Shown here: positions 1,805 through 64,000 of the stretch, piece after piece
Layout: each line of letters begins with the position of its first letter
Numbering within the stretch: the first letter of the stretch is position 1
Assembly: GCA_050998805.1 (NCBI GenBank)
Contig: JBPCPV010000029.1
Location: 15,768-79,767, forward strand
Reading direction: 5' to 3'
Length of the DNA: 64,000 nucleotides
Origin: Chloroflexia bacterium
GTDB lineage: Bacteria; Chloroflexota; Chloroflexia; QHBQ01; JAICKM01
Made by a program: the position numbers and the translations under genes
Notes under the pieces: model-generated
The model's database searches: none
Told to the model about the DNA's origin: nothing
The model's input: only the letters and a program-made list of their open reading frames with translations

Positions 1805-1833
1805 GCCGGTACAACAAGTCAAGGAGGGAAACT

Positions 1834-2319
1834 ATGGCGCATCCTGTCTACCTCGTGCTGAGTGCCGCAGGCACTGAGATCCCAGGCGAAAGTACCGGCG
1901 CAGGCCCCGGCCCCGCAAATGCAATCGAGTGCATCTACTTTGAGCAAGCTGCGACCACCTCGCGCGAGTACGGCGCCGGCATGGCGACCGGTCGGCGCGA
2001 ATACCGCCCGCTCGTCATCCGCAAGCGCATAGACCGCGCCTCGCCCCTGCTCTGGAAGGCGCTCACCGAAGGCCAACCCATCGAGGGCAGCTTCAAGTTC
2101 TTCCGCTCTTCCAGCGAGGGCGTCACCGAGCATTTCTACACCATCGAGATCAAGCAGGCCCGCATCTCCTCCATCCGAGAGTACGTCCCCGACATACTCG
2201 ACCCCGCCACGAAGCATGAGCCTCCCCTGGAAGAGATCAACTTCGTCTTCCACACAAGTTCCTGGACCTACAAAGAGGGCAACATAACTTACCAAGACAC
2301 CTGGATCGCCAGCCCCTAG
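1834..2319 (+). CDS. hcp: Hcp/TssD-like protein (type VI secretion tube protein fold), orphan
   Basis: 161 aa; N-term MAHPVYLVLSAAGTEIPGES, central GRREYRPLVIRKRIDRASPLLWKALTEGQ and FYTIEIKQARISSI match the Hcp1 family pattern (ITKxIDKSSPxLxxAxxxG). Confidence 0.6.
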   Translation: MAHPVYLVLSAAGTEIPGESTGAGPGPANAIECIYFEQAATTSREYGAGMATGRREYRPLVIRKRIDRASPLLWKALTEGQPIEGSFKFFRSSSEGVTEHFYTIEIKQARISSIREYVPDILDPATKHEPPLEEINFVFHTSSWTYKEGNITYQDTWIASP

Positions 2320-2349
2320 ACGAGTTTTGAGTTGTGAGTTGGAGGAAGC

Positions 2350-3705
2350 ATGGCGGACGATTTCGCAGCCTATGATGCCTATATTGAGCGGAACTTCGAC
2401 GGGTTCGTGACCGAGCTGCGGGAGTTTTGCTCGCAGCCGGCGCTTGCCGGACAGAAGATAGGCCTTGCGGAGAGCGGCGATATGGTCCGCGGCAAGATCG
2501 AGGGCCTCGGCGGGCGTGTCGAGTTCGTGCCGGTCGAAGACGGCTCCCCGGTGATCCTCGGCGAGCTGGGCGCGGGCGAGAAGACGCTGCTGCTCTACAA
2601 CCACTACGATGTGCAGCCGCCCGAGCCGCTCGAGCTTTGGGACAGCCCGCCATACGCAGGCGAGGTGCGCGGCGGCCGCTTCTTCGCGCGCGGCGTCGCC
2701 GACGATAAGGGCGACCTGCTCGCCCGCGTGCAGGCGATACGCGCCTATCAAGAGACGGTCGGCCCGCTCCCGTTGCGCCTGCGCTGGCTGATCGAGGGCG
2801 AGGAAGAGATCGGCAGCCCCCACCTCGCACCGGTCGTCCGCGCCCATGCCGATGCCCTGCGCGCCGACTTCTGCGCCTGGGAGGGCGGCGGACGCGACGT
2901 GCATGGCCGTCCCCAGGTCGTTTGCGGCATGAAGGGGATGCTCTACATCGAGCTTCACGCCACGGGGCCGAGTCACGATGTCCACTCCGGCAACGGCGGC
3001 ATCATCCCCAACCCCTCCTGGCGGCTCGTGCAGGCGCTCGCCACGATCAAGGACGCGCACGACAACATCACCCTCGACGGCCTGCCGGACCTGATCGCCG
3101 AGCCGAGCCGGGCCGACCTGGCAGCTGCAGATGCGATGCCTTTTGACGAAGAGGCGCTCGCCCAATTGTACGGGGTGGACCACTGGCAGAGCGACCTGCG
3201 TGGCCGTGACGTGTTGAACACCTTGATGTTCAAGCCGACGGCCAACATAGCCGGCTTCACCAGCGGCTACGGCGGCCCCGGCTCGAAGACTATCGTGCCC
3301 AGCAAGGCCGTCGTCAAAATGGACTTCCGCCTCGTGCCCAACCAGACCCCGGCCAAGATGCTCGACCTGGTGCGTCGCCACCTCGCCCGCCGTGGCTTCA
3401 GCGATGTCGAAGTGGTGGAACTCGGCGGCCTCGAAGTCGGCAAGACGCCGGTGGACAGCCCCTTCGTGCAGACCGCGCTCTCCGTCTGGCACGGCCTGGT
3501 GCCGGGCGGTGCCAACCTCGTTCCGATGACCGGCGGTAGCGGGCCGATCTCGCTGGTAGCCAGCGACCTCGGCATCCCGACCGCGATGGTCTGCGGCCCC
3601 GGCTTCGCAGGCTCTGCGATCCACTCCCCGAACGAGTCGATCAAGCTGGAGGACTACCGGACGACGCTGCGCTACTGGGGGAGGCTGTTTGCACGGCTGG
3701 CGTAG
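2350..3705 (+). CDS. M20-family metallopeptidase / dipeptidase
   Basis: 451 aa; YNHYDVQPPEP...GVADDKG metal-binding motifs of M20/M25/M40 peptidases. Confidence 0.8.
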   Translation: MADDFAAYDAYIERNFDGFVTELREFCSQPALAGQKIGLAESGDMVRGKIEGLGGRVEFVPVEDGSPVILGELGAGEKTLLLYNHYDVQPPEPLELWDSPPYAGEVRGGRFFARGVADDKGDLLARVQAIRAYQETVGPLPLRLRWLIEGEEEIGSPHLAPVVRAHADALRADFCAWEGGGRDVHGRPQVVCGMKGMLYIELHATGPSHDVHSGNGGIIPNPSWRLVQALATIKDAHDNITLDGLPDLIAEPSRADLAAADAMPFDEEALAQLYGVDHWQSDLRGRDVLNTLMFKPTANIAGFTSGYGGPGSKTIVPSKAVVKMDFRLVPNQTPAKMLDLVRRHLARRGFSDVEVVELGGLEVGKTPVDSPFVQTALSVWHGLVPGGANLVPMTGGSGPISLVASDLGIPTAMVCGPGFAGSAIHSPNESIKLEDYRTTLRYWGRLFARLA

Positions 3706-3746
3706 TGCGTATGGGGTGCGGCTGGTAATCGCGAGGGATGATGGAG

Positions 3747-3777
3747 TTTGCACCCCACAGCCCATTTATGGTATAAT
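3747..3777 (+). promoter_or_regulatory. putative rpsF operon promoter with extended -10 (TTTGCA ... TGgTATAAT), followed by a ~130-nt leader
   Basis: TGgTATAAT at 3769-3777; -35-like TTTGCA/TTGCAC 18 nt upstream. Confidence 0.45.
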
Positions 3778-5105: not shown

Positions 5106-6704
5106 ATGGCTACGAACAAAAAAGGCAACAACCCCGTGCAGGCCCCCCGCCAGATGACGCGGGGCCAGCTCTCGCATCACCAGCGCGAGCTACAGCAGAT
5201 ACGCCGACTCTATATAGGCATGGGCGCGGTCATCCTGCTGATCCTCATTGTCCTCGGCAGCGCGCTGCTTAACGTCTTCGTGCTCCGCCCCAACGAGGAG
5301 ATGGGCAAGGTCAACGGCCAGTCCATCACCCGGAGCATGTACAACAAGTACCGAGCCTGGGTAGTCTTCAACCAGATGCGTACCTACGATTTCTACACCC
5401 AGCAAACAACCGACCAGACCCAGATCACCCAGTACCAGACCCAGATCACGTCTCTACAGCAAGAACTCCAGAATCTAGACAACTGGCCGACGATAGATTC
5501 GGCAACTCTTGGGCAGATCGTGGAGAACCTGATCATCGAGCAGAAGGCACCCTCTCTTCAGGTGAGCGTCTCACAAGCCGATATTCTGGCCGACGCGCAA
5601 AACAACTTCTTGCCGACGCCGACAGCCGTGCCCGGCCCGACCGACACGCCCGGCCCGACCAATACGCCCGGCCCACCGACGCCGACCGGCACCCCGCCGA
5701 CCGCGACCACCGCACCCACCGGCACCCCGCCGACCAGCACCCCGCCCCCGTCGCGCACGCCGACCCACACCCCGACGCCCGGCCCCAGCCCGACCTCCAG
5801 CCGCACGCCGACGATCACGCCCACGCCTCTGCCGGTGCCTGGCGCGCAACAGACGGCAGTTTCCACCTACGACAGCTTCATCGGTGCGCTCTCAGGTAGC
5901 TCCAAGCCGGGAACCGGTTACTGCGCGCTCGGCTGCCCCAGCCTCTCGGTTGACGATTACCTGAACCTCGTCGCAAAGCCCCAGACGCTCTCGAAGAAGA
6001 TCACCGATAAGCTCGGCGAGTCGATCCCGAAAACGCAAGACGAGGTCCACGTCCAACATATCCTCGTGAAGACCGAGGCCGAGGCTAAGGACATCAAGGC
6101 GAAGCTCGACAAGGGCGCGAACTTCGCGGACCTCGCCTCCCAGTACTCGATAGACACCTCGAACAAAGACACCGGAGGCGACCTCGGCTGGTTCCTGCCG
6201 ACCGCAAAGGGCGGGCCGATGGTCAAGGAGTTCTCCGACGCGGCCTTCCTACTCACCAAGCCCGGCCAGATCAGCGACCCGGTACACAGCCAATTCGGCT
6301 GGCACATCATCCGCCTCGTCGAGCGCGCCTCACGCGCGTTGACCGACCAGGAACTCACCACCGCCAAGACAAAGGCATACGACGACTGGCTCCAGAAGCA
6401 GAAAGACAGCTCCACCATCACCAACCTCAAGGTGGCGCTGCCGACGCCGACGCCGACCCCAGGCCCGGCGGTCTTGCCGACCGACGTGCCTTCCGTCCCG
6501 ATAACGAACACCGGCACACTCACCGGCACCGGCACGACAACCGGCACCGGCACACTGACGAACACCGGCACACTGACGAACACCGGCACCATCACCGGCA
6601 CGGGCCTCCCGCCCGCCCCGACCCGCGCCGTCACGCCCCCGGCCTCCCCTCCACCTCAGGCGACCACATCGCCCCAGCCTGGAGCCACAGCCACAACAAA
6701 GTAA
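5106..6704 (+). CDS. membrane-anchored PpiC/parvulin-type peptidyl-prolyl cis-trans isomerase (SurA/PrsA-like) with Pro/Thr-rich linkers
   Basis: N-terminal TM helix, parvulin domain (HVQHILVKTEAEAK...GGDLGWF...GWHIIRL), long PT-rich low-complexity segments. Confidence 0.75.
   Translation: MATNKKGNNPVQAPRQMTRGQLSHHQRELQQIRRLYIGMGAVILLILIVLGSALLNVFVLRPNEEMGKVNGQSITRSMYNKYRAWVVFNQMRTYDFYTQQTTDQTQITQYQTQITSLQQELQNLDNWPTIDSATLGQIVENLIIEQKAPSLQVSVSQADILADAQNNFLPTPTAVPGPTDTPGPTNTPGPPTPTGTPPTATTAPTGTPPTSTPPPSRTPTHTPTPGPSPTSSRTPTITPTPLPVPGAQQTAVSTYDSFIGALSGSSKPGTGYCALGCPSLSVDDYLNLVAKPQTLSKKITDKLGESIPKTQDEVHVQHILVKTEAEAKDIKAKLDKGANFADLASQYSIDTSNKDTGGDLGWFLPTAKGGPMVKEFSDAAFLLTKPGQISDPVHSQFGWHIIRLVERASRALTDQELTTAKTKAYDDWLQKQKDSSTITNLKVALPTPTPTPGPAVLPTDVPSVPITNTGTLTGTGTTTGTGTLTNTGTLTNTGTITGTGLPPAPTRAVTPPASPPPQATTSPQPGATATTK
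6487..6600 (+). repeat. in-frame 18-bp coding tandem repeat (caccggcacactgacgaa-like units) encoding TGTLTN repeats at the C-terminus of the PPIase
   Basis: consecutive near-identical 18-mers visible in the sequence. Confidence 0.6.
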
Positions 6705-16892: not shown

Positions 16893-17285
16893 TCAAACTT
16901 CGCGGGTGTACCAGTATGCCCAGGCGATCAGTACGAACTGGAGGGGGAGGCGCCCCCAGGCCGCCCAAACTGGGATGCCGGGCATGGCGGGGTGGTCGCC
17001 GCCGGCGGAGGTTGCGCCGTAGATGTTCGCGGGGAAGATGGCGATCAGCGTCAGGATCAGCGCCCAGGCCGCGAACCGCCGGGTGCGCGGGATCAGCAGC
17101 ATCGCCCCCAGGCTGCCCTCGATTGCTCCGCTGAGGTAGACTAGTTGGAGAGGCGCGGGCAGCATCGGCGGCATAAGCCGCACATAGGGTGTGCTGTCCG
17201 TGAAGTGCAATATCCCGCTTCCGATGAACAGAGCCGCCAGAGGCAGGACCAAGATAGCTTTAAGTCGTTTCATGGATCGCATCAC
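16893..17285 (-). CDS. DoxX-like small integral membrane protein
   Basis: four predicted TM helices, DoxX/DUF-like pattern; start uncertain (several Met). Confidence 0.45.
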   Translation of the reverse strand: MMRSMKRLKAILVLPLAALFIGSGILHFTDSTPYVRLMPPMLPAPLQLVYLSGAIEGSLGAMLLIPRTRRFAAWALILTLIAIFPANIYGATSAGGDHPAMPGIPVWAAWGRLPLQFVLIAWAYWYTREV

Positions 17286-18865
17286 TTGTTCAGCTCATAT
17301 CGCCACTCGAAGTAGTGTTGGCCGACGTTGCCCTGCTGAATGCGCCAGGTGGGGGCGAAGTCGGGGACGTAAGTGAGGACACGGCGCTGGTACGCCTGGA
17401 TCATCACAGAGAGGTCGCGCCCGCTCACGCGCATCTGGGTCCAATATCCCTCGGTGATCGGGTATCCCAGGACGTATGTCCAATCGAAGCCGTAGGTAGG
17501 CTGCATGTCCTGCAAGTAGTGCCAAAAGAGGTCGGGGATGTTGTGGCCGGTCTGGGTCACGAAGGCGGCGTAGTGGGAGAGACCGGAGTGGACTATGTCT
17601 GTGTAGACCCCGCCCCCAGTGTCGAGGGCATCGCTGACCGGCTGACCGACGCGGTTGGGTGCTTGGTGTTCGCCGTGCAGGCTGGCAACGCCGGCCAGGG
17701 AATTGTAATCGGGCGCGATCGGGTTGTCCTTTCGCGGGTCTCCGACCACGGGGAGTATGCATGGCACAGTCTCGTGGATCGAGGAGGTGTTGCCGGTCTG
17801 GATGTCGCCGCTGATCATCTCGACGGTCAGCAGGCCGTTAGTCACGTAGTATGGACTGTTCGGGTCGGCGCTTGGGTCGTTGACCTCCATGCGGGCCTTG
17901 TCGTAGTACTCCACATCGTGCCTGCCGCCCGGTCTCTGGGCATAAGCCTCGGCGGCACGGTACAGGAGGGTCGGACCCCAAAGCCAGGAGCGTGGGGCCG
18001 TTCCGGCGGCCACGGCCGCGTCGGCCTTCGACCAGACGCGCCCGAAGGCGGGGTCGGGGGCACCGAGCCAGACGAGGTGAATTAAATTCTTGCTGTATAG
18101 GTATTGGGGAGGAAGGGACTCATCCAGCACATAGACCAGTGCATCGCCGGATGTCGCCAACCTCTCTACACGCCCGTGACCCCCTGCTGGGACACGCAGA
18201 AGCACTTTCTCGGTGCTGCGGTCGGCTATCCTGAACGTACCCGCCAAGTCGGGGTCGGCTGCCGGCTCGACGGAGACATCGTAGGGGGAAGGCGGATCGG
18301 GCGCGAGGTCGCCGCCGGTCCAGGGGCCGCCATGGTTGGCAGCAGGGTCGAAGTAGCAGCGGTCGCAGGCTAGGGTGCCGCGCAGGAAGTACTCATATTG
18401 ACAGGGCGCTTGGGTCGGCTGGGTCCAAAGCAGACGAGGCCCGTTATGCGTGTCGCCGTTCGGGCAGTTGCAGGCGAACTCGAAACCATCGGCAGCGGGG
18501 GGATCTCCTCCGCAGCTGTCGTCCTCTGTAATCATCGCCATCTGGAGAGTTATCGTGCGCTGATCAATCAGGTTTTTGAGAGTGATCGTCCCGACTGGAG
18601 GCGCACAGTGCCCGCAGGCACTCACGAGCTTTGCGTAGGCGGCCCAATCTCCGCTCACCTGTAGCCAACTCACGGCAGAGACGAAGCTGACCTGGCCGGC
18701 GTCGTCAAGAGTGAGCGGGATGAAGGGCAAGGGAGCAGGTGCTTGAGCCGCGATGCGGGCGGCGACCGGCGCGCCCCCGCCGGGGAGCAGGCCGAGCGCA
18801 GCTACAAGCAGCAAGACAGCCGCAAAAAACAGTCGGGCGGTCGCAGGTGTGCGTCTCATTCCCAT
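17282..18865 (-). CDS. secreted Cys-rich protein with a C-terminal LGFP-like repeat domain (paralog of 53199-54350)
   Basis: signal peptide, C-terminal block RSWLWGP...YYDKARMEVNDP...FVTNGLL...LGYPITEGYW...IQAYQRRVLTYVP shared with the 53199-54350 protein. Confidence 0.5.
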   Translation of the reverse strand: MGMRRTPATARLFFAAVLLLVAALGLLPGGGAPVAARIAAQAPAPLPFIPLTLDDAGQVSFVSAVSWLQVSGDWAAYAKLVSACGHCAPPVGTITLKNLIDQRTITLQMAMITEDDSCGGDPPAADGFEFACNCPNGDTHNGPRLLWTQPTQAPCQYEYFLRGTLACDRCYFDPAANHGGPWTGGDLAPDPPSPYDVSVEPAADPDLAGTFRIADRSTEKVLLRVPAGGHGRVERLATSGDALVYVLDESLPPQYLYSKNLIHLVWLGAPDPAFGRVWSKADAAVAAGTAPRSWLWGPTLLYRAAEAYAQRPGGRHDVEYYDKARMEVNDPSADPNSPYYVTNGLLTVEMISGDIQTGNTSSIHETVPCILPVVGDPRKDNPIAPDYNSLAGVASLHGEHQAPNRVGQPVSDALDTGGGVYTDIVHSGLSHYAAFVTQTGHNIPDLFWHYLQDMQPTYGFDWTYVLGYPITEGYWTQMRVSGRDLSVMIQAYQRRVLTYVPDFAPTWRIQQGNVGQHYFEWRYELNK

Positions 18866-18877
18866 ACTCCTTGTAGC

Positions 18878-18912
18878 GGTCAGTGGTCGGTGGTTGGTGG
18901 TCAGTGGTCAGC
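18878..18912. repeat. heptanucleotide tandem repeats (GGTCAGT/GGTCGGT/GGTTGGT, 5 units) in the 5' leader of the 17282-18865 gene
   Basis: direct reading of the sequence; located 13-47 nt upstream of the start codon on the minus strand. Confidence 0.7.
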
Positions 18913-19857: not shown

Positions 19858-20019
19858 TCCGATAACAGTATAGAGTACGCTCCGGCTGAGTACAAGCCGC
19901 CATAGGGCACGAATCCCGCGCCTGTAAGACACGGCTCCGCCCGTGGACCCTGGCCGGGCCTGGTGCGTCTGTGGGAGAGCGGCTCTGCCCTCGATTGGTT
20001 CGCCCTACCTCGTTGCTCG

Positions 20020-20063
20020 CACTCCGCACCCGTCAATCCGCACTCCGCACTCCGCACTCCGCC
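20020..20063. repeat. heptanucleotide tandem repeats CGCACTC (about 5 units)
   Basis: cgcactccgcacccgtcaatccgcactccgcactccgcactccgcc immediately upstream of a TTGACA box and the tRNA-Sec candidate. Confidence 0.7.
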
Positions 20064-20123
20064 TTGACAGACCCCGGCCCGGTCAGTTATCCTAGATGCA
20101 CGCCGCGCCGCGAGGCGCAGCGG

Positions 20124-20218
20124 GGGGGTGGTTGGGTCCCGGTGGGCTCCGCAGTCTTCAAAACTGTCCGGGTGTCGCTAAGAACGGCATCGGTGGGTTC
20201 GACTCCCATGCACTCCCG
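20124..20218 (+). tRNA. selC: selenocysteine tRNA candidate (anticodon UCA), 95 nt
   Basis: hand-folded: 8-nt acceptor 20124-20131 pairs with 20210-20217 (7 of 8, one G-U); 6-bp D-stem with 4-nt loop (20134-20149); anticodon stem GCAGT/ACTGT with loop CTTCAAA (anticodon TCA 20158-20160); long variable arm (7-bp stem, 20171-20191); T-arm GTGGG-TTCGACT-CCCAT; discriminator G 20218. Confidence 0.6.
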
Positions 20219-20248
20219 CCCCCTAAGAACAATGCAAAGGACAAGAAA

Positions 20249-21016
20249 ATGAATGAGGAAGAAAAGCATTTCGACTATGAGGGGCTGGGCAAGAAACTGC
20301 TGGCATACTGCCGGAAGTATTCTATACCCCCGCAGCACATCTTCGATATCCTCAATGACCAAAAAGTGATCCCCATGCTGCGCGGCAAAGGGTTGGAATA
20401 CAGCCTTAGTCTAGTTCTACCTACAGTCCTCGATGCGGCTGCCTGGCAAGTAAACAAACTGAACCGCAATGCCCAGCCGGGCATACCAGACGAGGATCTC
20501 GAAGTTATTCACAAGCGCACTGGGATCCGGCTCGTGGTCGAGTCTAAAAGTGCAGTGCGCGGCTCAATGACGCTGGGCACTCGTTCTCGGACCCACAAAG
20601 TGCCTCACTTCAAGGTCAAATGCCATCGGAGCCGGAGCAACAAGAAGCTCGAAACAAATGACCGCTACGCGGAGACGGCTTTTGATGTGCTGGTGAGCAA
20701 TCCCACAAACGCTCTCTATGCTGGCGCAACAATCGGGGAAGAACTGGAGCTAATAGACGATGCTGCGCTTATCGAAGCACTCATGCAGTACTACAATGCA
20801 GCAGGTACGTCAACTCTAGTGGAAGCTGCTGCTGCTGATTGGCGCTTCGTGCTCCCGCCTCGAATTGCTGTGGACGGGTTCATCCCGCGGACACCGGTTG
20901 TTCTGCTGACCGGCGACCCGAACTGGCAACCGCTAAATCAGCTGGAAACCCAACTAACGGCAGTTGTACAGCAACAGGCTGATGCGCGACGGCGGCCGGG
21001 TCATAGCTCAAAATAA
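20249..21016 (+). CDS. putative type II restriction endonuclease (PD-(D/E)xK-like) partner of the Dam-family MTase
   Basis: 256 aa in a low-GC segment, convergent with and overlapping the MTase 3' end; candidate motif ...PDEDLEV...VVESK; no strong family match recognisable by eye. Confidence 0.4.
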   Translation: MNEEEKHFDYEGLGKKLLAYCRKYSIPPQHIFDILNDQKVIPMLRGKGLEYSLSLVLPTVLDAAAWQVNKLNRNAQPGIPDEDLEVIHKRTGIRLVVESKSAVRGSMTLGTRSRTHKVPHFKVKCHRSRSNKKLETNDRYAETAFDVLVSNPTNALYAGATIGEELELIDDAALIEALMQYYNAAGTSTLVEAAAADWRFVLPPRIAVDGFIPRTPVVLLTGDPNWQPLNQLETQLTAVVQQQADARRRPGHSSK

Positions 21017-21848
21017 ACACTTCCCGCCCCATGTAACGTTTGCCTCGGTCGGTCGTCTTTTTGGTCTGATCATCCGTCCGGTTGATCGTGTAGTTCCACT
21101 CTTTGTCCAGCATGGCCGCCGCCCACTGATACAAGGCGCGGACTTCGGGGCTGTTGTCATACGTAAGCAGGAAGGAGAGGCGGTGGCTGTGCGTGTGCAA
21201 AACCTCAGCCAGACGCAGATGATCTGCGCGTGTGAAGCTGTAAGTGTAAAACTTGTCCTGATCCGCATTAAAGTAGGGCGGGTCTACGAACAAGAACGCT
21301 CCGTCAGGAGCCTGCTCGATGGTTTGGGCGAAATCCGCACAGGTGATCTGCACATCCTGTAACTTGGCCGAGCAGCGCCGTAGATGACCCGGCCAATTCT
21401 TCGGCTGCATACTGTAAATGTCACCATACCCCCAATAGCAGTTAGGCGCGTTCATAATCCCCGAATAGCTGGTCCGGTTAAGATAGTACCACCGAAAGGC
21501 GCGTTCAAGTTCGTTCGTCGGCCTATACACATTCTTGTAGTAAGTATGATTTTCTTTACTGGCCCCGATCCCATCCAGCAAGGCAATCAATTCCTCCACA
21601 TGATCCCTTATGTGGATATAGCAATTGACGAGTTCGGGATCTGCGTCGTTTAGGAGGTTTGTTGCAGCCTTGCTTTTGGCGAAAAAGATCGAACCGCCCC
21701 CGGCAAATGGCTCTGCATAGTAGCTGTGCGGAATCATTTGCTCCAAAATTAGCTTACGAGCGTAGAACTTACCGCCCGCGTAGCGAAACGGCGAATTGAT
21801 AGGCACCCTATCAACGGTTGCTCCCTTAGGCTGGGTTCCGATCGGCAT
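20880..21848 (-). CDS. Dam-family (D12 class) N6-adenine DNA methyltransferase
   Basis: FRYAGGK, EPFAGGGS (SAM binding) and DPPY catalytic motif; the GC-rich C-terminal ~40 codons are probably read-through past the real C-terminus. Confidence 0.8.
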   Translation of the reverse strand: MPIGTQPKGATVDRVPINSPFRYAGGKFYARKLILEQMIPHSYYAEPFAGGGSIFFAKSKAATNLLNDADPELVNCYIHIRDHVEELIALLDGIGASKENHTYYKNVYRPTNELERAFRWYYLNRTSYSGIMNAPNCYWGYGDIYSMQPKNWPGHLRRCSAKLQDVQITCADFAQTIEQAPDGAFLFVDPPYFNADQDKFYTYSFTRADHLRLAEVLHTHSHRLSFLLTYDNSPEVRALYQWAAAMLDKEWNYTINRTDDQTKKTTDRGKRYMGREVFILSYDPAAVAHQPVAVQLPLVGFPADLAVASSGRRSAEQPVSAG

Positions 21849-42533: not shown

Positions 42534-42548
42534 AAGGCGGACGAGTTG

Positions 42549-42590
42549 TCAGCCGTCAGCGTTCAGCCGTCAGCTTATCAGTGATCTATC
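42549..42590. repeat. heptanucleotide tandem repeats (TCAGCCG/TCAGCGT units) at the start of a structured low-GC intergenic region
   Basis: cagccgtcagcgttcagccgtcagcttatcag... Confidence 0.6.
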
Positions 42591-43015: not shown

Positions 43016-44194
43016 CTATGGGACTACAGGCGCAGGAGTCGGCGAAGGAGGGCGGGGCGTCGAGGTAGAATGAGCGGCGGTTGCCGTGGGGTCCGCCGCC
43101 GTTGGGGTTGCGGCGTGTGGTGTCGCTGTTGAGGCGGGCTGGGTTGGCGTGGACGGTAGCTGGGTTGCGGTCGGCTGCGCCAGGGTCGGGGTTGGAGGCA
43201 GCGGTGTTGCCGTCGAGGGTTGCTGGGTCGGGGTTGGAGGCAGCGGTGTTGCCGTCGGGGGTTGCTGGGTCGGGGTGGACGGCAACGCAGTCGCAGTTGG
43301 GGCCAGCTGGGTTGGCGGGACCGGCAACTGAGTTGCGGTCGCGGGCGGCTGGGTTAATGTCGGTGGTGCCTGCGTTGCTGTCGGCTGCGCGGCGGTCGGG
43401 GTTGCGGTTGGTGTGAACGGAGCCGCGGTGTTTGTCGGCCCCGGCGTGGGCGTGCTCGTCGCCTGCGGCCCCTGAGTTCGCGTCGGCTCCGCTGCCGGCG
43501 TAGGTGTGGCAAGCTGGGGAGGGACGGGTGTGGCAGTGGCCTCTGGGGTCGGCACCTCGGTGGGCTGCGGCGGCTCAGTCGGCAGGGGCGGCTCCGTCGG
43601 CGACGGCTCCGGTGGAGCTGCTGTGGCACTCGGCTCGGCAGCCGGCAGCGAAGTCTGCGTCGAGCGAGAGGGCGGTGCCGGGGCTGTCGGCAGTTCAGAC
43701 GGCGCGACCGGCGGGCTGGTCACCGTCGGGGGCGGCGGACCGATGGGCGCACCCGGCAGCGGCGTCACTGTAGCGAGCGGCGGCAGCGTCGGATAGCCCG
43801 ACGGAAGCCCGGTCGGCGTGTCGTCGGTGGCGCTGGGAGCGGGGCGGTGGGTTGGCGTGACTACGCTCGTCAGAGAAACAGGAGCGGTCGCAAAAGACAG
43901 GACGGGAGTCGGGGAGGCAGGCGTTATGGCCGGCAGGCCGGACCGCGCTTTCCAGGGCTGCCAGACGGCGAGCAGTGCGCCCGCCGCGACCAGCAGAACC
44001 GCCGCCGCAAAGTACGCGCCTCCGGCAGGCGTGAGGCCAAACCGGCGGGGTCGCGGCTCCGAGGACGGCCAGCCGCCCCGGGCGTCGTCTGTGAACTCGG
44101 GGTAGGTGCCTGCCACTCGCGCGCGCTGGTCGGTAGCCTCCGGCTCCGAGCCTGTCTCGAATCCCCCCTCGTTACCGTGATACGGCTCAGACAT
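43016..44194 (-). CDS. single-pass membrane protein with long Pro/Thr-rich repetitive extracellular region
   Basis: cytoplasmic N-term, TM helix AYFAAAVLLVAAGALLAVW, then ~300 aa of PT-rich repeats. Confidence 0.5.
   Translation of the reverse strand: MSEPYHGNEGGFETGSEPEATDQRARVAGTYPEFTDDARGGWPSSEPRPRRFGLTPAGGAYFAAAVLLVAAGALLAVWQPWKARSGLPAITPASPTPVLSFATAPVSLTSVVTPTHRPAPSATDDTPTGLPSGYPTLPPLATVTPLPGAPIGPPPPTVTSPPVAPSELPTAPAPPSRSTQTSLPAAEPSATAAPPEPSPTEPPLPTEPPQPTEVPTPEATATPVPPQLATPTPAAEPTRTQGPQATSTPTPGPTNTAAPFTPTATPTAAQPTATQAPPTLTQPPATATQLPVPPTQLAPTATALPSTPTQQPPTATPLPPTPTQQPSTATPLPPTPTLAQPTATQLPSTPTQPASTATPHAATPTAADPTATAAHSTSTPRPPSPTPAPVVP
43183..43275. repeat. ~45-bp coding tandem repeat (2 near-identical units) inside the PT-rich protein gene
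   Basis: ttggaggcagcggtgttgccgtcg(a/g)gggttgctgggtcgggg repeated. Confidence 0.6.
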
Positions 44195-44222: not shown

Positions 44223-46559
<2,337 letters not shown>

Positions 46560-49792: not shown

Positions 49793-50995
49793 TCAGTCCA
49801 CTTGGACTATGATCGCGTCTCCCTGCGCCGTGCCGGAGCAGATCGCCGCGAGGCCGATGCCGCCTCCCCGCCGCCGGAGTTCGTAGATCAGCGTCATCAG
49901 GATGCGTGCGCCGCTCGCACCGATCGGATGGCCGAGCGCGACCGCGCCGCCGTTCACGTTGACTATCTCGGTGTCGAGGTGGAGGCGGCGGCTGCTGATG
50001 ATTGTGACGCTCGTGAAGGCCTCGTTGATCTCCACGAGGTCAATATCGTTCGTCGTCAGCCCGAGGTGTTTGAGGGCGTTGTGCGCGGCCATCGCCGGAG
50101 TGTAGGCCAGGTAGGGGGTGTCCCATGCGGCCTCGCCGTAGCCGAGGATGCGGGCCAGCGGCTTGAGTCCGTGTGCTTTTGCGTATACTGCCGAGGCGAC
50201 GACCAGTGCGCCCGCGCCATCGCTGAGGCCGGGCGCATTACCGGCAGTGATCGTGCCGTCGGCTCCGAAGACCGGCTTGAGCTTCGCCAGACCCTCCGGC
50301 GTCGTGTCGCGGCGTATAGCCTCGTCTTTGTCCACGATGATCGGCTCGCCCTTCTTCTGCGGTATCCGCACCCCTACGATCTCGTCGGCGAAGCGGCCCT
50401 CGTCCTGGGCGGCAGCCGCGCGCTGGTGGCTCCTGTAGGCCCATGCGTCCTGCTCCTCGCGGCTCACGTGCTCTTCCGCCGCGACCGTCGAGCCGTGCTC
50501 GCCCATGTGGACCTTGAGCATCGGGTCGGTCAGGCCGTCATACACAACGCCGTCTATCATCTCGCCGTTGCCCATCCGCTGCCCCCAGCGCGCCCCCATG
50601 AGGTAGTAGGGGGCGTTGCTCATGCTCTCCATGCCGCCGGCCACGATCAGGTCGTGCCTGCCGAGCCGGATCAGGTCTCCGGCCAGAGTGACGGCACGCA
50701 TACCACTCGCACATACCCGGTTGATCGTGTCCGAGGTGACTTCGCGCCCCAGCCCCGCCTTGAACGCCGCCTGGCGCGACGGCACCTGGCCGAGGCCGGC
50801 CTGCACCACGCAGCCCATGATGTTGTGCGTAATGTCTTCCTTCGGCACATCCGCCCGCCGGACCGCCTCGCCCATCACGCAGGCCCCCAACTCCACCGCA
50901 GACAACGGCAGTAAGCTGCCGCCGAACTTGCCGAACGGAGTGCGGACTGCGCTCAGAATTACCGGGTCTTGATCGTTCGCCATTTTGTTGCTCAC
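49793..50995 (-). CDS. acetyl-CoA C-acetyltransferase (thiolase II)
   Basis: catalytic Cys ([10 protein letters not shown]), C-terminal [14 protein letters not shown] thiolase signatures. Confidence 0.9.
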
Positions 50996-51178
50996 TTTCT
51001 AAAAGCTCGTAAGCTATCAGCCGTCAGCCGTCAGGCTCCATCTGTCCACGCCGTAGTGTACCACCGGCGAAGGCGGTTGTGCAACTCAAAAGCATCGGTC
51101 TTTAGACGGATCTTTGGGGGCTTTGTATGTCGCTTGGTCTCGGCGTGTGCTATAATGGGGGCGAGGAAGGGACAGCGA

Positions 51179-61888: not shown

Positions 61889-63796
61889 CTATCTCCACCC
61901 AAGCCGCCCCGCTGTCTCCTCTGCCGCCTTGCCGACGGCAGTGGGCGTGGCGTGGGGCAGGTAGAGATAGCGCGCGGCGAGGGTCTGGGCCAGGGCAGGG
62001 GCCTCGCCCGCAGATAGGTAGCGGAGGCGGGTGTCGATCACCAGCGTTGCGGCTGCCCCGCGAGCCGAGAGCGTAGCCCAGCGTCCCGCGAGCGCAACGA
62101 CCTCGGCGGCGATGCCTTGGGGCGTGGGCGGGGCAGCCAACGGCACATTCGCCCGCCCGTCGGTCAGCAGCACAAGTAGCGTGTGCCCATAGCCGCCGGG
62201 GCCTGCCCGCACTGCCACCTCCAGGCCGAGCGCCAGCGCCGAAGCCAGCGGTGTGCCGCCCCCTGCAGGCAGGCTCTCCAGCAGGCGGCGGGCGCGCGCA
62301 GACGAGCGCGTCGGCGGAAGCAGCAGCCCCGCCTCCGGCCCCCGTATGCCGATCAGCGCCACCCGATCGCGCCGGAGGTAGGCGCGTTCGAGCAGCAGCA
62401 ACGCAGCTCCCTTCGCCGGTCCCAGCCGGTTGCGCGCCATCGAGCCGCTCGCGTCCACCGCCAGCACAAACAGCACTCCCGCCGGTGCCTCCGGCGTCCG
62501 CCACCGCAGATCCTCGGCCCGCAGGACGAACTTACCTCCATCCTCCGATTGCGGAGTGCGGAGTGCGGATTGCGGAGTACGAGGTCCCACGTCCCAGGCG
62601 CTAATCGATGCGTAGTCTGCACTCCGCAATCCGCGATCCGCAATCCGCCAAGCCGCCGCCTCCAACGTCGCCGACACGTCGAGTGTCGCCCCCCGGGGCC
62701 GGCGTCTATCTGCCCGAGCCGGCCCCGGCCTGCCGTGCCGCGCCGGCAGTAGCCTCCGCTCCCCGGCCATCCGCCCCGCGCCGACCTCGCCTGTCCACCC
62801 GCCGTTCCGCCTCCCCGCCGGGTTCGGCAAAGCATCCCTCGGCAGAAGCGCCGCCTGCGCCCCGATCAGCCGCTCGACGAGTGCGGAGTGCGGAGTGCGG
62901 AGTGCGGAGTCACCCTCGCTGTCATTCTGAGCGCCGCCACTGTCATTCTGAGCGTAGCGAAGAATCTCCGCCGACGGTTGACGGTTGACGGCTGACGGCT
63001 GACCGCCTGCGCGCGGCGCGAGGACGAAGGCGACCGCCAGATCGAGGTCCACGTCCTCGACAACGGCGCGGCCGGCCAGCGTGGCGACGGCGCGGGCGGC
63101 GCGGGCCGCGAGGTAATCCGCGCGCAGCCCCGTCACGCCGAGGCGCATGGCTACGGCGGCGAGCACGGCGATCTGGTCGTCGGCGATTGCTGCGTAGTGC
63201 GTAGTGCGTAGTGCGTAGTGCGGATTGAGGGGCACTGACGGCTGCTCGCTAACGGCTGCTCGCTGACGGCTGCTCGCTGATTGCTGAATGCGCCCGTCGC
63301 CATATTCCGCACTCCGCACTCCGCACTCCGCAATCGGTAGCCAGAGTCCGGCCTGCTCGAGCAGCGAAGGGTAGCGGGACGGCGCGGCTGTGAGCAGGAG
63401 GAGGCGGGTGGGGTGCCGGGCGCTCAGGCCGTCGCGCTCTAGCTGAACAGCGCCGTGCCGGAGGGCGGCGGTGAGCGGGGCCACGATTTCGGTCGGCAGG
63501 AGATCCGGGTCGGGCAGCCATAGCACGCCGCCGTCGTGGGCCGCGAGCAGGCCGGGGCGGACGACGCGCCGTCCCTGCCGGAGCGTGGCGTCGAGGTCGA
63601 GGCCGCCGAGCATCTGGTCGGGTGCGATGCCCACGGGCAGGCGCAAGACGCGGGCTTGAGGGCCGAGGGCAGCCGCGAGGCTGGCGGCGGCTTCGCCCAG
63701 CTCCCAGCCGTCGCCGCCGAGCAGGGCAAGTCCGCCGAGGGCGGGGTCGAGCGCGAGCATGGCGAGGGCGGTTTCGAGCGAGAGGTCGGGCGTCAT
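61889..63796 (-). CDS. Mg-chelatase subunit D-like protein (degenerate AAA+ N-domain + C-terminal VWA domain) carrying three in-frame heptamer-repeat insertions
   Basis: N-term AAA-like, lid helix GLRADYLAARAARAVATLAGR..., C-terminal VLFVLAVDASGSMA...GGTPLASAL...LTDGRAN VWA/MIDAS; translationally coupled (ATGA) to the upstream chlI/bchI-like gene. Confidence 0.7.
   Translation of the reverse strand: MTPDLSLETALAMLALDPALGGLALLGGDGWELGEAAASLAAALGPQARVLRLPVGIAPDQMLGGLDLDATLRQGRRVVRPGLLAAHDGGVLWLPDPDLLPTEIVAPLTAALRHGAVQLERDGLSARHPTRLLLLTAAPSRYPSLLEQAGLWLPIAECGVRSAEYGDGRIQQSASSRQRAAVSEQPSVPLNPHYALRTTHYAAIADDQIAVLAAVAMRLGVTGLRADYLAARAARAVATLAGRAVVEDVDLDLAVAFVLAPRAGGQPSAVNRQPSAEILRYAQNDSGGAQNDSEGDSALRTPHSALVERLIGAQAALLPRDALPNPAGRRNGGWTGEVGAGRMAGERRLLPARHGRPGPARADRRRPRGATLDVSATLEAAAWRIADRGLRSADYASISAWDVGPRTPQSALRTPQSEDGGKFVLRAEDLRWRTPEAPAGVLFVLAVDASGSMARNRLGPAKGAALLLLERAYLRRDRVALIGIRGPEAGLLLPPTRSSARARRLLESLPAGGGTPLASALALGLEVAVRAGPGGYGHTLLVLLTDGRANVPLAAPPTPQGIAAEVVALAGRWATLSARGAAATLVIDTRLRYLSAGEAPALAQTLAARYLYLPHATPTAVGKAAEETAGRLGWR
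62556..62658. repeat. composite heptamer-repeat block with inverted arms (GATTGCG/GAGTGCG x5 ... GCACTCC/GCAATCC x4) inside the chelatase-D-like ORF
   Basis: direct reading; arms are reverse complements, giving hairpin potential. Confidence 0.7.
62878..63004. repeat. composite repeat block (GAGTGCG x4; 14-nt direct repeat tgtcattctgagcg x2; GACGGTT/GACGGCT x4) inside the chelatase-D-like ORF
   Basis: direct reading of the sequence. Confidence 0.7.
63186..63340. repeat. composite repeat block (GCGTAGT x4; 14-mer gacggctgctcgct x3; CCGCACT x3) inside the chelatase-D-like ORF, splitting the AAA core from its lid
   Basis: direct reading of the sequence. Confidence 0.7.
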
Positions 63797-64000
63797 GGCG
63801 AGAAGATGCCGTCCAGCATTTCGGCCACCCGCTCCCCGCCGTCAAGCGGGTCGAGCGGTCCACGGCGCAGGCGGTGGCGGAGCGCCGGAACCGCGACGCG
63901 CCGCACATCGGTGGCTTCGGCTTCTCTGCGGCCTTCGAGCGCGGCCATGGCGCAACCGGCGCGCGCGATCGTGATCTCGCCGCGGTGCCCGTCCACGCCG
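63793..64000 (-). CDS. Mg-chelatase ATPase subunit I-like protein (ChlI/BchI family), 3' end only (gene continues beyond the window)
   Basis: C-terminal lid ITIARAGCAMAALEGRREAEATDVRRVAVPALRHRLRRGPLDPLD matches ChlI/BchI C-termini. Confidence 0.65.
   Translation of the reverse strand, partial: GVDGHRGEITIARAGCAMAALEGRREAEATDVRRVAVPALRHRLRRGPLDPLDGGERVAEMLDGIFSP

Follow-up and report, generated by a model that had tools for sequence, protein, structure and literature searches.

Heptanucleotide repeat arrays have been described in several bacteria. The GGGAATC repeats of Xanthomonas favor four units per array, form 70–75 convergent pairs per genome, and are intergenic, within about 50 bp of open reading frames (ORFs), in 89–93% of cases and intragenic in 7–11% (PMC4692102). 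The GGGGAYT repeats of Nostoc are intragenic in 32% of cases (PMC4692102), and the TAACTGA repeats of Beggiatoaceae constitute another class of heptanucleotide array (PMC4679880). As summarized in PMC10969869, Ogata et al. (2000, 2002) reported Rickettsia palindromic elements (RPEs) as in-frame palindromic DNA in functional, unrelated housekeeping genes, with several copies per gene possible, as in uvrA and uvrB. In-frame palindromic elements are also known from Opitutus, and intragenic repetitive extragenic palindromes (REPs) have been described (PMC3733652). Here, we analyzed a window of 64,000 nt (the whole stretch of DNA under study, 65% G+C) from a Chloroflexia metagenome-assembled genome (MAG), in which a gene resembling those for the D subunit of magnesium chelatase (ChlD/BchD) carries three blocks of heptamer arrays within its reading frame.

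We favor, with a probability of about 75%, the reading that these blocks are neutral or slightly deleterious passenger DNA composed of heptanucleotide arrays, which has been filtered by selection and sits in three linkers, indifferent to sequence, of a ChlD-like protein that still functions. The repeat class itself is ordinary, and its triple in-frame position within one gene is unusual; our literature search found no description of composite in-frame heptamer arrays in genes of Chloroflexia or of the Planctomycetes–Verrucomicrobia–Chlamydiae (PVC) group.

Like the cyanobacterial short tandemly repeated repetitive (STRR) sequences and the heptamers of Xanthomonas, Nostoc, and Beggiatoaceae, the arrays have a 7-nt unit, about four units per array, and many convergent pairs in which the G-rich array comes first. 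They also resemble known heptamer simple sequence repeats (SSRs) in lying mostly tens of bases from gene ends, in the coexistence of many units, and in being intragenic in a minority of cases. In contrast to these, the present locus has six arrays in three blocks of one conserved gene, in frame and in place of linker residues. Like RPEs and intragenic REPs, the blocks are DNA of non-coding type that lies in frame and is predicted to encode extra peptide segments at structurally permissive sites. RPEs and REPs, however, are families in which both the consensus and the encoded peptide are conserved, whereas only the heptamer motifs recur among the blocks, the spacers are unrelated, and block 2 is not palindromic.

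Heptamer arrays in the ChlD-like gene

Tandem Repeats Finder identified seven arrays in the ChlD-like gene, six with a 7-nt unit (3.9–4.6 units, 86–100% match) and one with a 14-nt unit, which form three groups. An earlier sequence-only reading had recognized three heptamer-repeat blocks here (62556–62658, 62878–63004, and 63186–63340), and our limits differ from these by at most about 10 nt. The gene, the blocks, and their repeats are listed below; the arrays are those of Tandem Repeats Finder.

61889–63796, minus strand: ChlD/BchD-like coding sequence (CDS), 635 aa (ORF list; Pfam VWA_2 and AAA_lid_2; TIGR02031)
62545–62650: block 1, aa 383–418, flanked by ATLEAAA and LRAEDLRW, immediately before the VWA domain
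62550–62578: left array of block 1, (TGCGGAG/GATTGCG) x4.1
62619–62648: right array of block 1, (GCAATCC) x4.3, separated from the left array by a 40-nt spacer
62878–63004: block 2, aa 265–307, at a Pro-rich/acidic linker
62879–62910: array of block 2, (GAGTGCG) x4.6, 100% match
62919–62933 and 62940–62954: 15-nt direct repeat of block 2, CTGTCATTCTGAGCG (repeat search)
62942–62966, plus strand: full copy of a 25-mer hairpin motif, GTCATYCTGAGCGNAGCGAAGRATC, in the spacer of block 2 (62919–62966)
62973–63003: array of block 2, (GACGGCT; GACGGYT) x4.4
63184–63337: block 3, aa 154–205, in the linker from the AAA+ core to the lid
63191–63222: array of block 3, first on the plus strand, (TGCGTAG) x4.6, 100% match
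63235–63280: 14-mer array of block 3, middle on the plus strand, CTGACGGCTGCTCG x3.3
63306–63332: array of block 3, last on the plus strand, (TCCGCAC) x3.9, 100% match

The repeats are head-to-tail 7-nt units in at least three copies and of high identity, as expected of heptanucleotide SSRs or STRR-like arrays. The gene contains six period-7 arrays, compared with a mean of 0.02 and a maximum of 1 in 500 dinucleotide shuffles, while 11 were observed in the whole window against 0.43 expected. At the array density of the rest of the window, the probability of finding at least three blocks in one 1.9-kb gene is about 5e-4. Inverted arms were also found, extending over 35 nt at 83% within block 1, 35 nt at 94% between blocks 1 and 3, and 31 nt at 97% between blocks 2 and 3. 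The convergent order of a G-rich array and then a C-rich array is present in blocks 1 and 3, and block 2 consists of two arrays of the same polarity.

The sequence-only reading had credited one block with arms able to form a long hairpin. Pairing arms are indeed present, but in two blocks. RNA folding gave −60.7 kcal/mol for block 1 (z = −4.3 relative to shuffles) and −64.8 kcal/mol for block 3 (z = −2.6), the arms of the latter being complementary at six of seven positions per unit. Block 2 showed no hairpin above background (z = −0.3).

That reading had also proposed small elements of the MITE or STRR type, where MITE stands for miniature inverted-repeat transposable element. The STRR-like part holds, since the same heptamers occur between genes elsewhere in the window (listed in the last section), whereas the MITE part does not. 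The blocks resemble MITEs in their size of about 100–150 bp, in being non-autonomous, in the inverted ends of blocks 1 and 3, and in the possibility of in-frame fusion with host ORFs. Unlike MITEs, they have no target-site duplication, no conserved internal sequence, and no defined termini, and their arm units vary between strains. Specifically, no adjacent direct repeat of 4 nt or longer was found at any of the three junction pairs, the array edges showed no conserved terminus other than one more partial unit, and the three blocks, alike only in their heptamer arms, share no common core. A search for known RNA families gave nothing at gathering thresholds, and relaxing the search to E-values of up to 10 yielded only meaningless weak matches to miRNA-type hairpins.

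The 25-mer GTCATYCTGAGCGNAGCGAAGRATC in block 2 occurs at no fewer than 120 loci in viral contigs. It comprises a 5-bp stem and a conserved 11-nt loop, is frequently found as inverted pairs, as are REP doublets forming hairpins (REPINs), and matches no Rfam family. Among the matches listed, positions Y6 and R22 covary perfectly (85 T-A, 53 C-G, 1 T-G, and 0 C-A). In the ChlD-like protein, it encodes the peptide EILRYAQND. Its link to heptamer arrays is weak, with an array within 100 nt in 10 of the 143 listed copies, which is about twice the background.

The host protein and its linkers

As the sequence-only reading had stated, the ORF is open across all blocks. Its product matches the Pfam families VWA_2 and AAA_lid_2. 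An identical protein (P0001), encoded on a 99.7-kb contig, is on record under the label “MAG: Chloroflexia bacterium”. Example peptides of the predicted full-length product are ECGVRSAEYGDGR and SALRTPHSALVER. The native parts of the protein and the adjacent gene are arranged as follows.

63793–64000, minus strand: 3′ part of the ChlI-like gene that lies upstream, truncated at the window border (ORF 63793–63996; orthologous loci)
63338–63796, minus strand: N-terminal degenerate AAA+-like module, aa 1–153 (alignment; AlphaFold2 confidence 78–94)
63005–63163, minus strand: native AAA lid domain between blocks 3 and 2 (Pfam AAA_lid_2, aa 212–277; AlphaFold2 confidence 83–95)
62156–62467, minus strand: VWA domain with an intact metal ion-dependent adhesion site (MIDAS; DASGS, GGGTPL, LLTDGRAN) (Pfam VWA_2, aa 444–547)

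The protein thus has the domains of BchD/ChlD, namely a VWA domain with MIDAS, an AAA lid, and an N-terminal AAA+-like module. The order of AAA+-like module, lid, flexible linker, and VWA domain is that of BchD/ChlD (TIGR02031) and of the ChlID-type cobaltochelatase subunits (TIGR02442), and the gene appears to be translationally coupled to the ChlI-like gene, its start overlapping the stop of the latter by 4 nt. Unlike typical members, however, it scores only 363.4 bits against TIGR02031, below the curated cut-off of 499.55; the repeat-free ortholog P0005 (413.5 bits) also falls below it, whereas a typical BchD (P0007) reaches 664. Walker A, GxxGxGKS, is replaced by GGDGWELGE (aa 12–32, window 63700–63760), and this loss is common to the query and P0002–P0005. 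The ChlI-like partner of an ortholog (the copy at locus L001) just passes TIGR02030 with 471.9 bits. No CobN/ChlH-like gene was found in a Pfam scan of ten window ORFs (one of 451 aa and nine of the other ten that reach 550 aa or more, ORF 1819–3765 on the minus strand being left out), nor in orthologous loci of 22 kb and 13.5 kb. The ChlI/ChlD-like pair may serve Mg chelation, Co chelation, or something else.

The closest relatives after P0001 are P0002–P0006, with 53–62% identity. In four orthologous loci, the gene order is that of the window, with the ChlI-like gene, the ChlD-like gene, a convergent gene for a GNAT acetyltransferase, and an AI-2E transporter gene; the P0004 contig stops at the gene, so that only the upstream ChlI-like neighbor is visible there. 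No heptamer array was found in or near the gene at any of the five ortholog loci. The blocks are therefore specific to this lineage, and the alignment proposed by the sequence-only reading as a check came out in its favor. In a 12-sequence alignment, the blocks coincide with the three most variable stretches. The alignment and Pfam likewise place one block between the AAA+ core and the lid and one just upstream of the VWA domain, as had been described. The lengths of the three segments, counted between the conserved anchors flanking each block, are given below.

Block 3 segment: query 55 aa, of which 52 are repeat-encoded; close orthologs 34–42 aa; distant BchD homologs 53–73 aa
Block 2 segment: query 48 aa, of which 43 are repeat-encoded; close orthologs 48–55 aa
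Block 1 segment: query 44 aa, of which 36 are repeat-encoded; close orthologs 22–25 aa

The earlier description of the blocks as simple insertions did not stand, as repeats encode 36–52 of the 44–55 residues between anchors and little of the native segment is left. The blocks have thus largely replaced the native linkers instead of simply being added to them.

The base composition of the blocks is that of non-coding DNA. The native CDS has 75% G+C, 85% G+C at third codon positions (GC3), and a strong coding periodicity, whereas the blocks have 63% G+C and 62% GC3 and show no codon-position periodicity. Blocks 2 and 3 contain stops in all three plus-strand frames, while two of the three frames of the coding strand are open; (GAGTGCG)n and (GATTGCG)n are free of stops in all six frames. 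The retention of the frame, the absence of stops, and the restriction to linkers at three sites argue for selection that keeps the gene intact. Translational bypassing or excision of the blocks was also considered and dropped, as the frame is open and there is no stop and no pattern of take-off and landing codons.

An AlphaFold2 model built from 40 homologs showed predicted local distance difference test (pLDDT) values of 83–95 in the AAA+-like, lid, and VWA parts (78–94 in the AAA+-like stretch). The low-confidence stretches (pLDDT below 50, or 46–72 as 10-residue averages) are the blocks and one native Gly/Arg-rich linker. For block 2, the values were 36–38 per 10 residues over aa 271–300; for block 3, they were 46–72 per 10 residues, and a low-confidence helix (aa 169–183) appeared at the position of a former native helix. 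All columns invariant across the 40 homologs, including the MIDAS, are retained in the query. The suggestion that the blocks are tolerated as extra peptide loops is consistent with their position in variable linkers of low pLDDT and is the simplest reading.

Decay of the gene is improbable by comparison: repeat DNA would have invaded a pseudogene, and the frame would be open by chance, which is easy in DNA of 65–75% G+C. The missing Walker A motif of the clade, the score below the BchD-ChlD cut-off, the deletion of a conserved helix by block 3, and the frequency of long spurious ORFs in the window would be compatible with decay. However, the first two features are shared by orthologs without repeats, all residues invariant in the 40 homologs are kept, and the GC3 periodicity of the native sequence is strong. 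Three events that kept the frame, took a stop-free orientation, and fell in linkers rather than domains, together with the preserved translational coupling to the ChlI-like gene, also speak against a pseudogene.

We regard it as still less likely that the blocks have been co-opted, either as new linker peptides that tune ChlD oligomerization or ChlI docking or through mRNA hairpins of blocks 1 and 3 that pause ribosomes or serve as RNase III sites. Such roles could draw on the folding of these two blocks, which is more stable than that of shuffles, on block lengths similar to those of the replaced linkers, on the low-confidence helix at the native helix site, and on two U32 peptidase orthologs that keep arrays at the same two sites. 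The hairpins, however, can be regarded as following from the convergent arrangement that such arrays generally have, between genes as well; furthermore, block 2 is unstructured, and the composition of the blocks appears unselected.

Several points weigh against the passenger-DNA reading that we favor. The production and activity of the ChlD-like protein are predicted from sequence, and the status of the ChlI/ChlD-like pair as a real chelatase would be undercut by the sub-cut-off TIGR02031 score, the missing Walker A, and the lack of a nearby ChlH/CobN gene. At block 3, the helix LxxLVxxARxxLPxV, which is conserved in BchD homologs, has been removed, and this could impair the protein. The occurrence of three blocks in a single gene is accounted for solely by an assumed tolerance. 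With the nearest ortholog at about 60% identity, direct replacement and insertion followed by deletion would leave the same picture. Finally, the mode of origin is a proposal, in which recombination, repair, or slippage is favored over cut-and-paste transposition.

Strain variation and heptamer arrays in other bacteria

The neighboring GNAT protein was matched on six other contigs. Four Logan assemblies of the same species (SRR33880236-8, SRR31090145), up to 6.8 kb long, show only three differences from the window, all of them confined to 34 nt where block 1 begins to give way to its flank (window 62530–62575). Two of the three alter array units, while the third is 15 nt outside block 1. The window has the units GATTGCG GAGTGCG GAGTGCG GATTGCG, and the other strain has four or more copies of GATTGCG. 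Of the blocks, the other assemblies cover only the left edge of block 1, where the units differ in sequence and the contigs break off within the array. The arrays and their edge thus change much faster than their surroundings, through homogenization of units and without visible change in copy number. Metagenome scans, both protein-guided and with an exact 24-mer lying between blocks 2 and 3, gave no matches.

All four Logan contigs stop inside the left arm of block 1, which they enter at an identical junction. Short-read assembly therefore breaks at these arrays and fragments genes. An assembly artefact of the MAG, for example chimeric joins at repeated heptamers, might be suspected from these breaks and from the near-identical inverted arrays of blocks 1, 2, and 3, which could mislead an assembler. 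It is extremely unlikely, since the identity of the junction in four independent assemblies indicates that the junction of block 1 is real. Furthermore, the reading frame runs on without a break, the sequence on either side of each of the three blocks aligns colinearly with the orthologs, and comparable in-frame arrays are present in many other assemblies, including contigs of megabase scale. The possibility of an artefact, raised in the sequence-only reading as a ground for dismissing the blocks, is thus not borne out.

Heptanucleotide repeats at Haemophilus hmw1A are reportedly an example of SSR-driven phase variation, and the sequence-only reading had likewise suggested that copy-number slippage could make the blocks act as switches. 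As in contingency loci, the unit length is not divisible by three. In silico, a slip of one unit in either direction in any of the six arrays shifted the frame and truncated the product at 184–478 aa, before or within the VWA domain; this part of the suggestion stands. A switch that turns the ChlD-like protein off by a one-heptamer slip and on again by reversion would also profit from the rapid change of the units, to which two of the three sister-strain differences in 6.8 kb belong. Nevertheless, we consider such a switch very unlikely. Known phase-variation switches typically have at least 10 repeat units. Unlike contingency loci, the arrays have about four units, no copy-number polymorphism was seen at the left edge of block 1, the part covered by other assemblies, and the product is not a surface or host-interaction protein, so that the gene falls outside the classes usually under contingency control. 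The single array difference between the strains is a substitution of the unit GAGTGCG by GATTGCG and not a change in copy number, and tracts of 3.9–4.6 units have the general modal size, which intergenic arrays share (PMC4692102). Moreover, in other bacteria the same arrays occur in LeuRS, Mfd, and an ORF resembling MurC/MurB in translation, and turning such genes off would be harmful.

Heptamer arrays of many different sequences are common. When one genome per species was scanned, (GAGTGCG)x3 was present at no fewer than 115 loci, and the phyla among the matches listed include Verrucomicrobiota, Planctomycetota, Acidobacteriota, Gemmatimonadota, Chloroflexota, Nitrospirota, Actinomycetota, and others. 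At these listed loci, arrays of the scanned unit show a sharp size mode of 24–35 nt, or about four units. In viral contigs, (GAGTGCG)x3 occurred at 12 loci, compared with 18 and 16 loci for two composition-matched permutations. A sequence-specific, horizontally spread GAGTGCG element was therefore rejected, the permuted-unit controls being equally frequent there. Where arrays are adjacent, the order of G-rich and then C-rich prevails by 63:3 at the listed loci, by 20:2 in pairs without the scanned unit, and by 10:1 at viral loci. In composite units elsewhere, complementary arms are frequent but not universal, and no relationship is seen between the spacers of different copies. In one Chloroflexia MAG (SMAG_U8985; loci L029, L038, L041, and L058), (GAGTGCG)x4, a variable spacer of about 20 nt, and (CTTCGTC)x4 follow each other at least four times; since the arms of this composite are not complementary, hairpin formation is not universal among composites.

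In-frame arrays are also found in other genes. Of 252 arrays in the fetched loci, 93 sit in frames open for at least 300 nt on both sides, a number that can only be a maximum in DNA so rich in G+C. We examined nine of the long ORFs that carry arrays in frame (loci L029, L047, L051, L090, L101, L116, L106, L041, and L003), and all nine contain Pfam domains, which identifies them as genuine genes. They include Mfd with four to five in-frame arrays each in one Chloroflexia MAG and one Limisphaerales MAG, and two orthologous U32 peptidases in which the units differ at one of the two shared sites. The others encode LeuRS, an Hsp70-like protein, a planctomycete-type PSD/PSCyt protein, a LuxR-TPR regulator, and a DUF2142 membrane protein. 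Array-encoded peptide motifs recur, e.g., ECGVRSAE and SALRTPHSAL. The MurC/MurB-like ORF mentioned above, so named from its translation, is a tenth with in-frame arrays; the domain scan covered the other nine.

According to the passenger-DNA reading, the blocks would be copies of a common bacterial repeat class with about four heptamers per array, often organized as a G-rich array, a spacer, and a C-rich array. In this genome, such arrays would normally lie between genes, beside gene ends. In this lineage only, three composite units would have come to fill the AAA+ core-lid, Pro-rich/acidic, and pre-VWA linkers, which are variable and probably disordered. The ribosome would read straight through the blocks, and these would have survived where their net length kept the frame, their orientation was free of stops, and the protein tolerated nearly any sequence.

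The preference for four units and the convergent G-first pairs are already known from Xanthomonas, in which the former has been tied to G-quadruplex formation (PMC4692102). The units GAGTGCG, GCGTAGT, and GACGGYT have no G-tracts; therefore, the G-quadruplex rationale cannot be general for the size of about four units. A speculative alternative, to which we assign a small chance, is that the blocks formed in place as scars of break repair or replication restart, where two 3′ ends would each have been extended by about four G-rich heptamers, either by slippage of the polymerase or by a dedicated process of templated extension, before being joined. Scar formation would explain the G-first polarity, the size of about four units even in units unable to form G-quadruplexes, the lack of target-site duplications and of a conserved core, the unlike arm units, and the disappearance of native sequence from each of the three sites. 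If true, protein linkers in many bacterial phyla would be rewritten by a process that has gone unrecognized.

Under the passenger-DNA reading, the locus suggests that heptamer arrays, usually deemed intergenic, can take over linkers three times in one conserved gene without destroying it. In-frame arrays in core genes such as those for Mfd, LeuRS, Hsp70-like proteins, and U32 peptidases occur in Verrucomicrobiota, Chloroflexota, and other bacteria, and the picture of “selfish DNA inside genes” drawn from Rickettsia would thereby be extended to a different and very widespread repeat class. The blocks may also mark protein segments that are indifferent to sequence, and they may explain breaks of short-read assemblies inside such genes. 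With six arrays in three blocks, this single gene could provide a test bed for array formation and slippage.

Other arrays and features of the window

Five further heptamer arrays are present in the window, all of them intergenic and no more than a few tens of bases away from a start or stop codon. Units of the ChlD-like gene recur in three of them, namely CGCACTC at 20018 and GTCAGCC at 42548 and 51017. Across the 64 kb, the arrays are thus dispersed, mainly intergenic, and close to gene ends, as STRR-like arrays are.

2322–2341: (GAGTTGT) x2.9, preceded by a stop codon and followed by the ribosome-binding site and ATG of an M20 peptidase gene
18878–18911: (GGTCAGT) x4.9, immediately upstream of the start of ORF 17282–18865 (minus strand)
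20018–20062: (CGCACTC) array, between a BirA-like ORF and tRNA-Sec
42548–42574: (GTCAGCC) x3.9, 15 nt beyond the stop codon of a DEAD/DSHCT helicase gene; reverse complement of the unit in block 2
51017–51034: (TCAGCCG) x2.6, intergenic, upstream of ORF 49793–50995 (minus strand)

The tRNA-Sec gene (20124–20220) directly follows the CGCACTC array, and after it come two ORFs, the first of unknown function and the second convergent (window 20096–21848). The convergent ORF has the motifs FRYAGGK and DPPY, which are typical of adenine DNA methyltransferases, and the region may be a small inserted restriction-modification island. Tandem Repeats Finder also placed repeats of longer period (42/84, 15–18, 18/36, and 30 nt) at 43119–43355, 5619–5795, 6502–6605, and 44625–44717, which may belong to repeat-containing proteins or low-complexity linkers.

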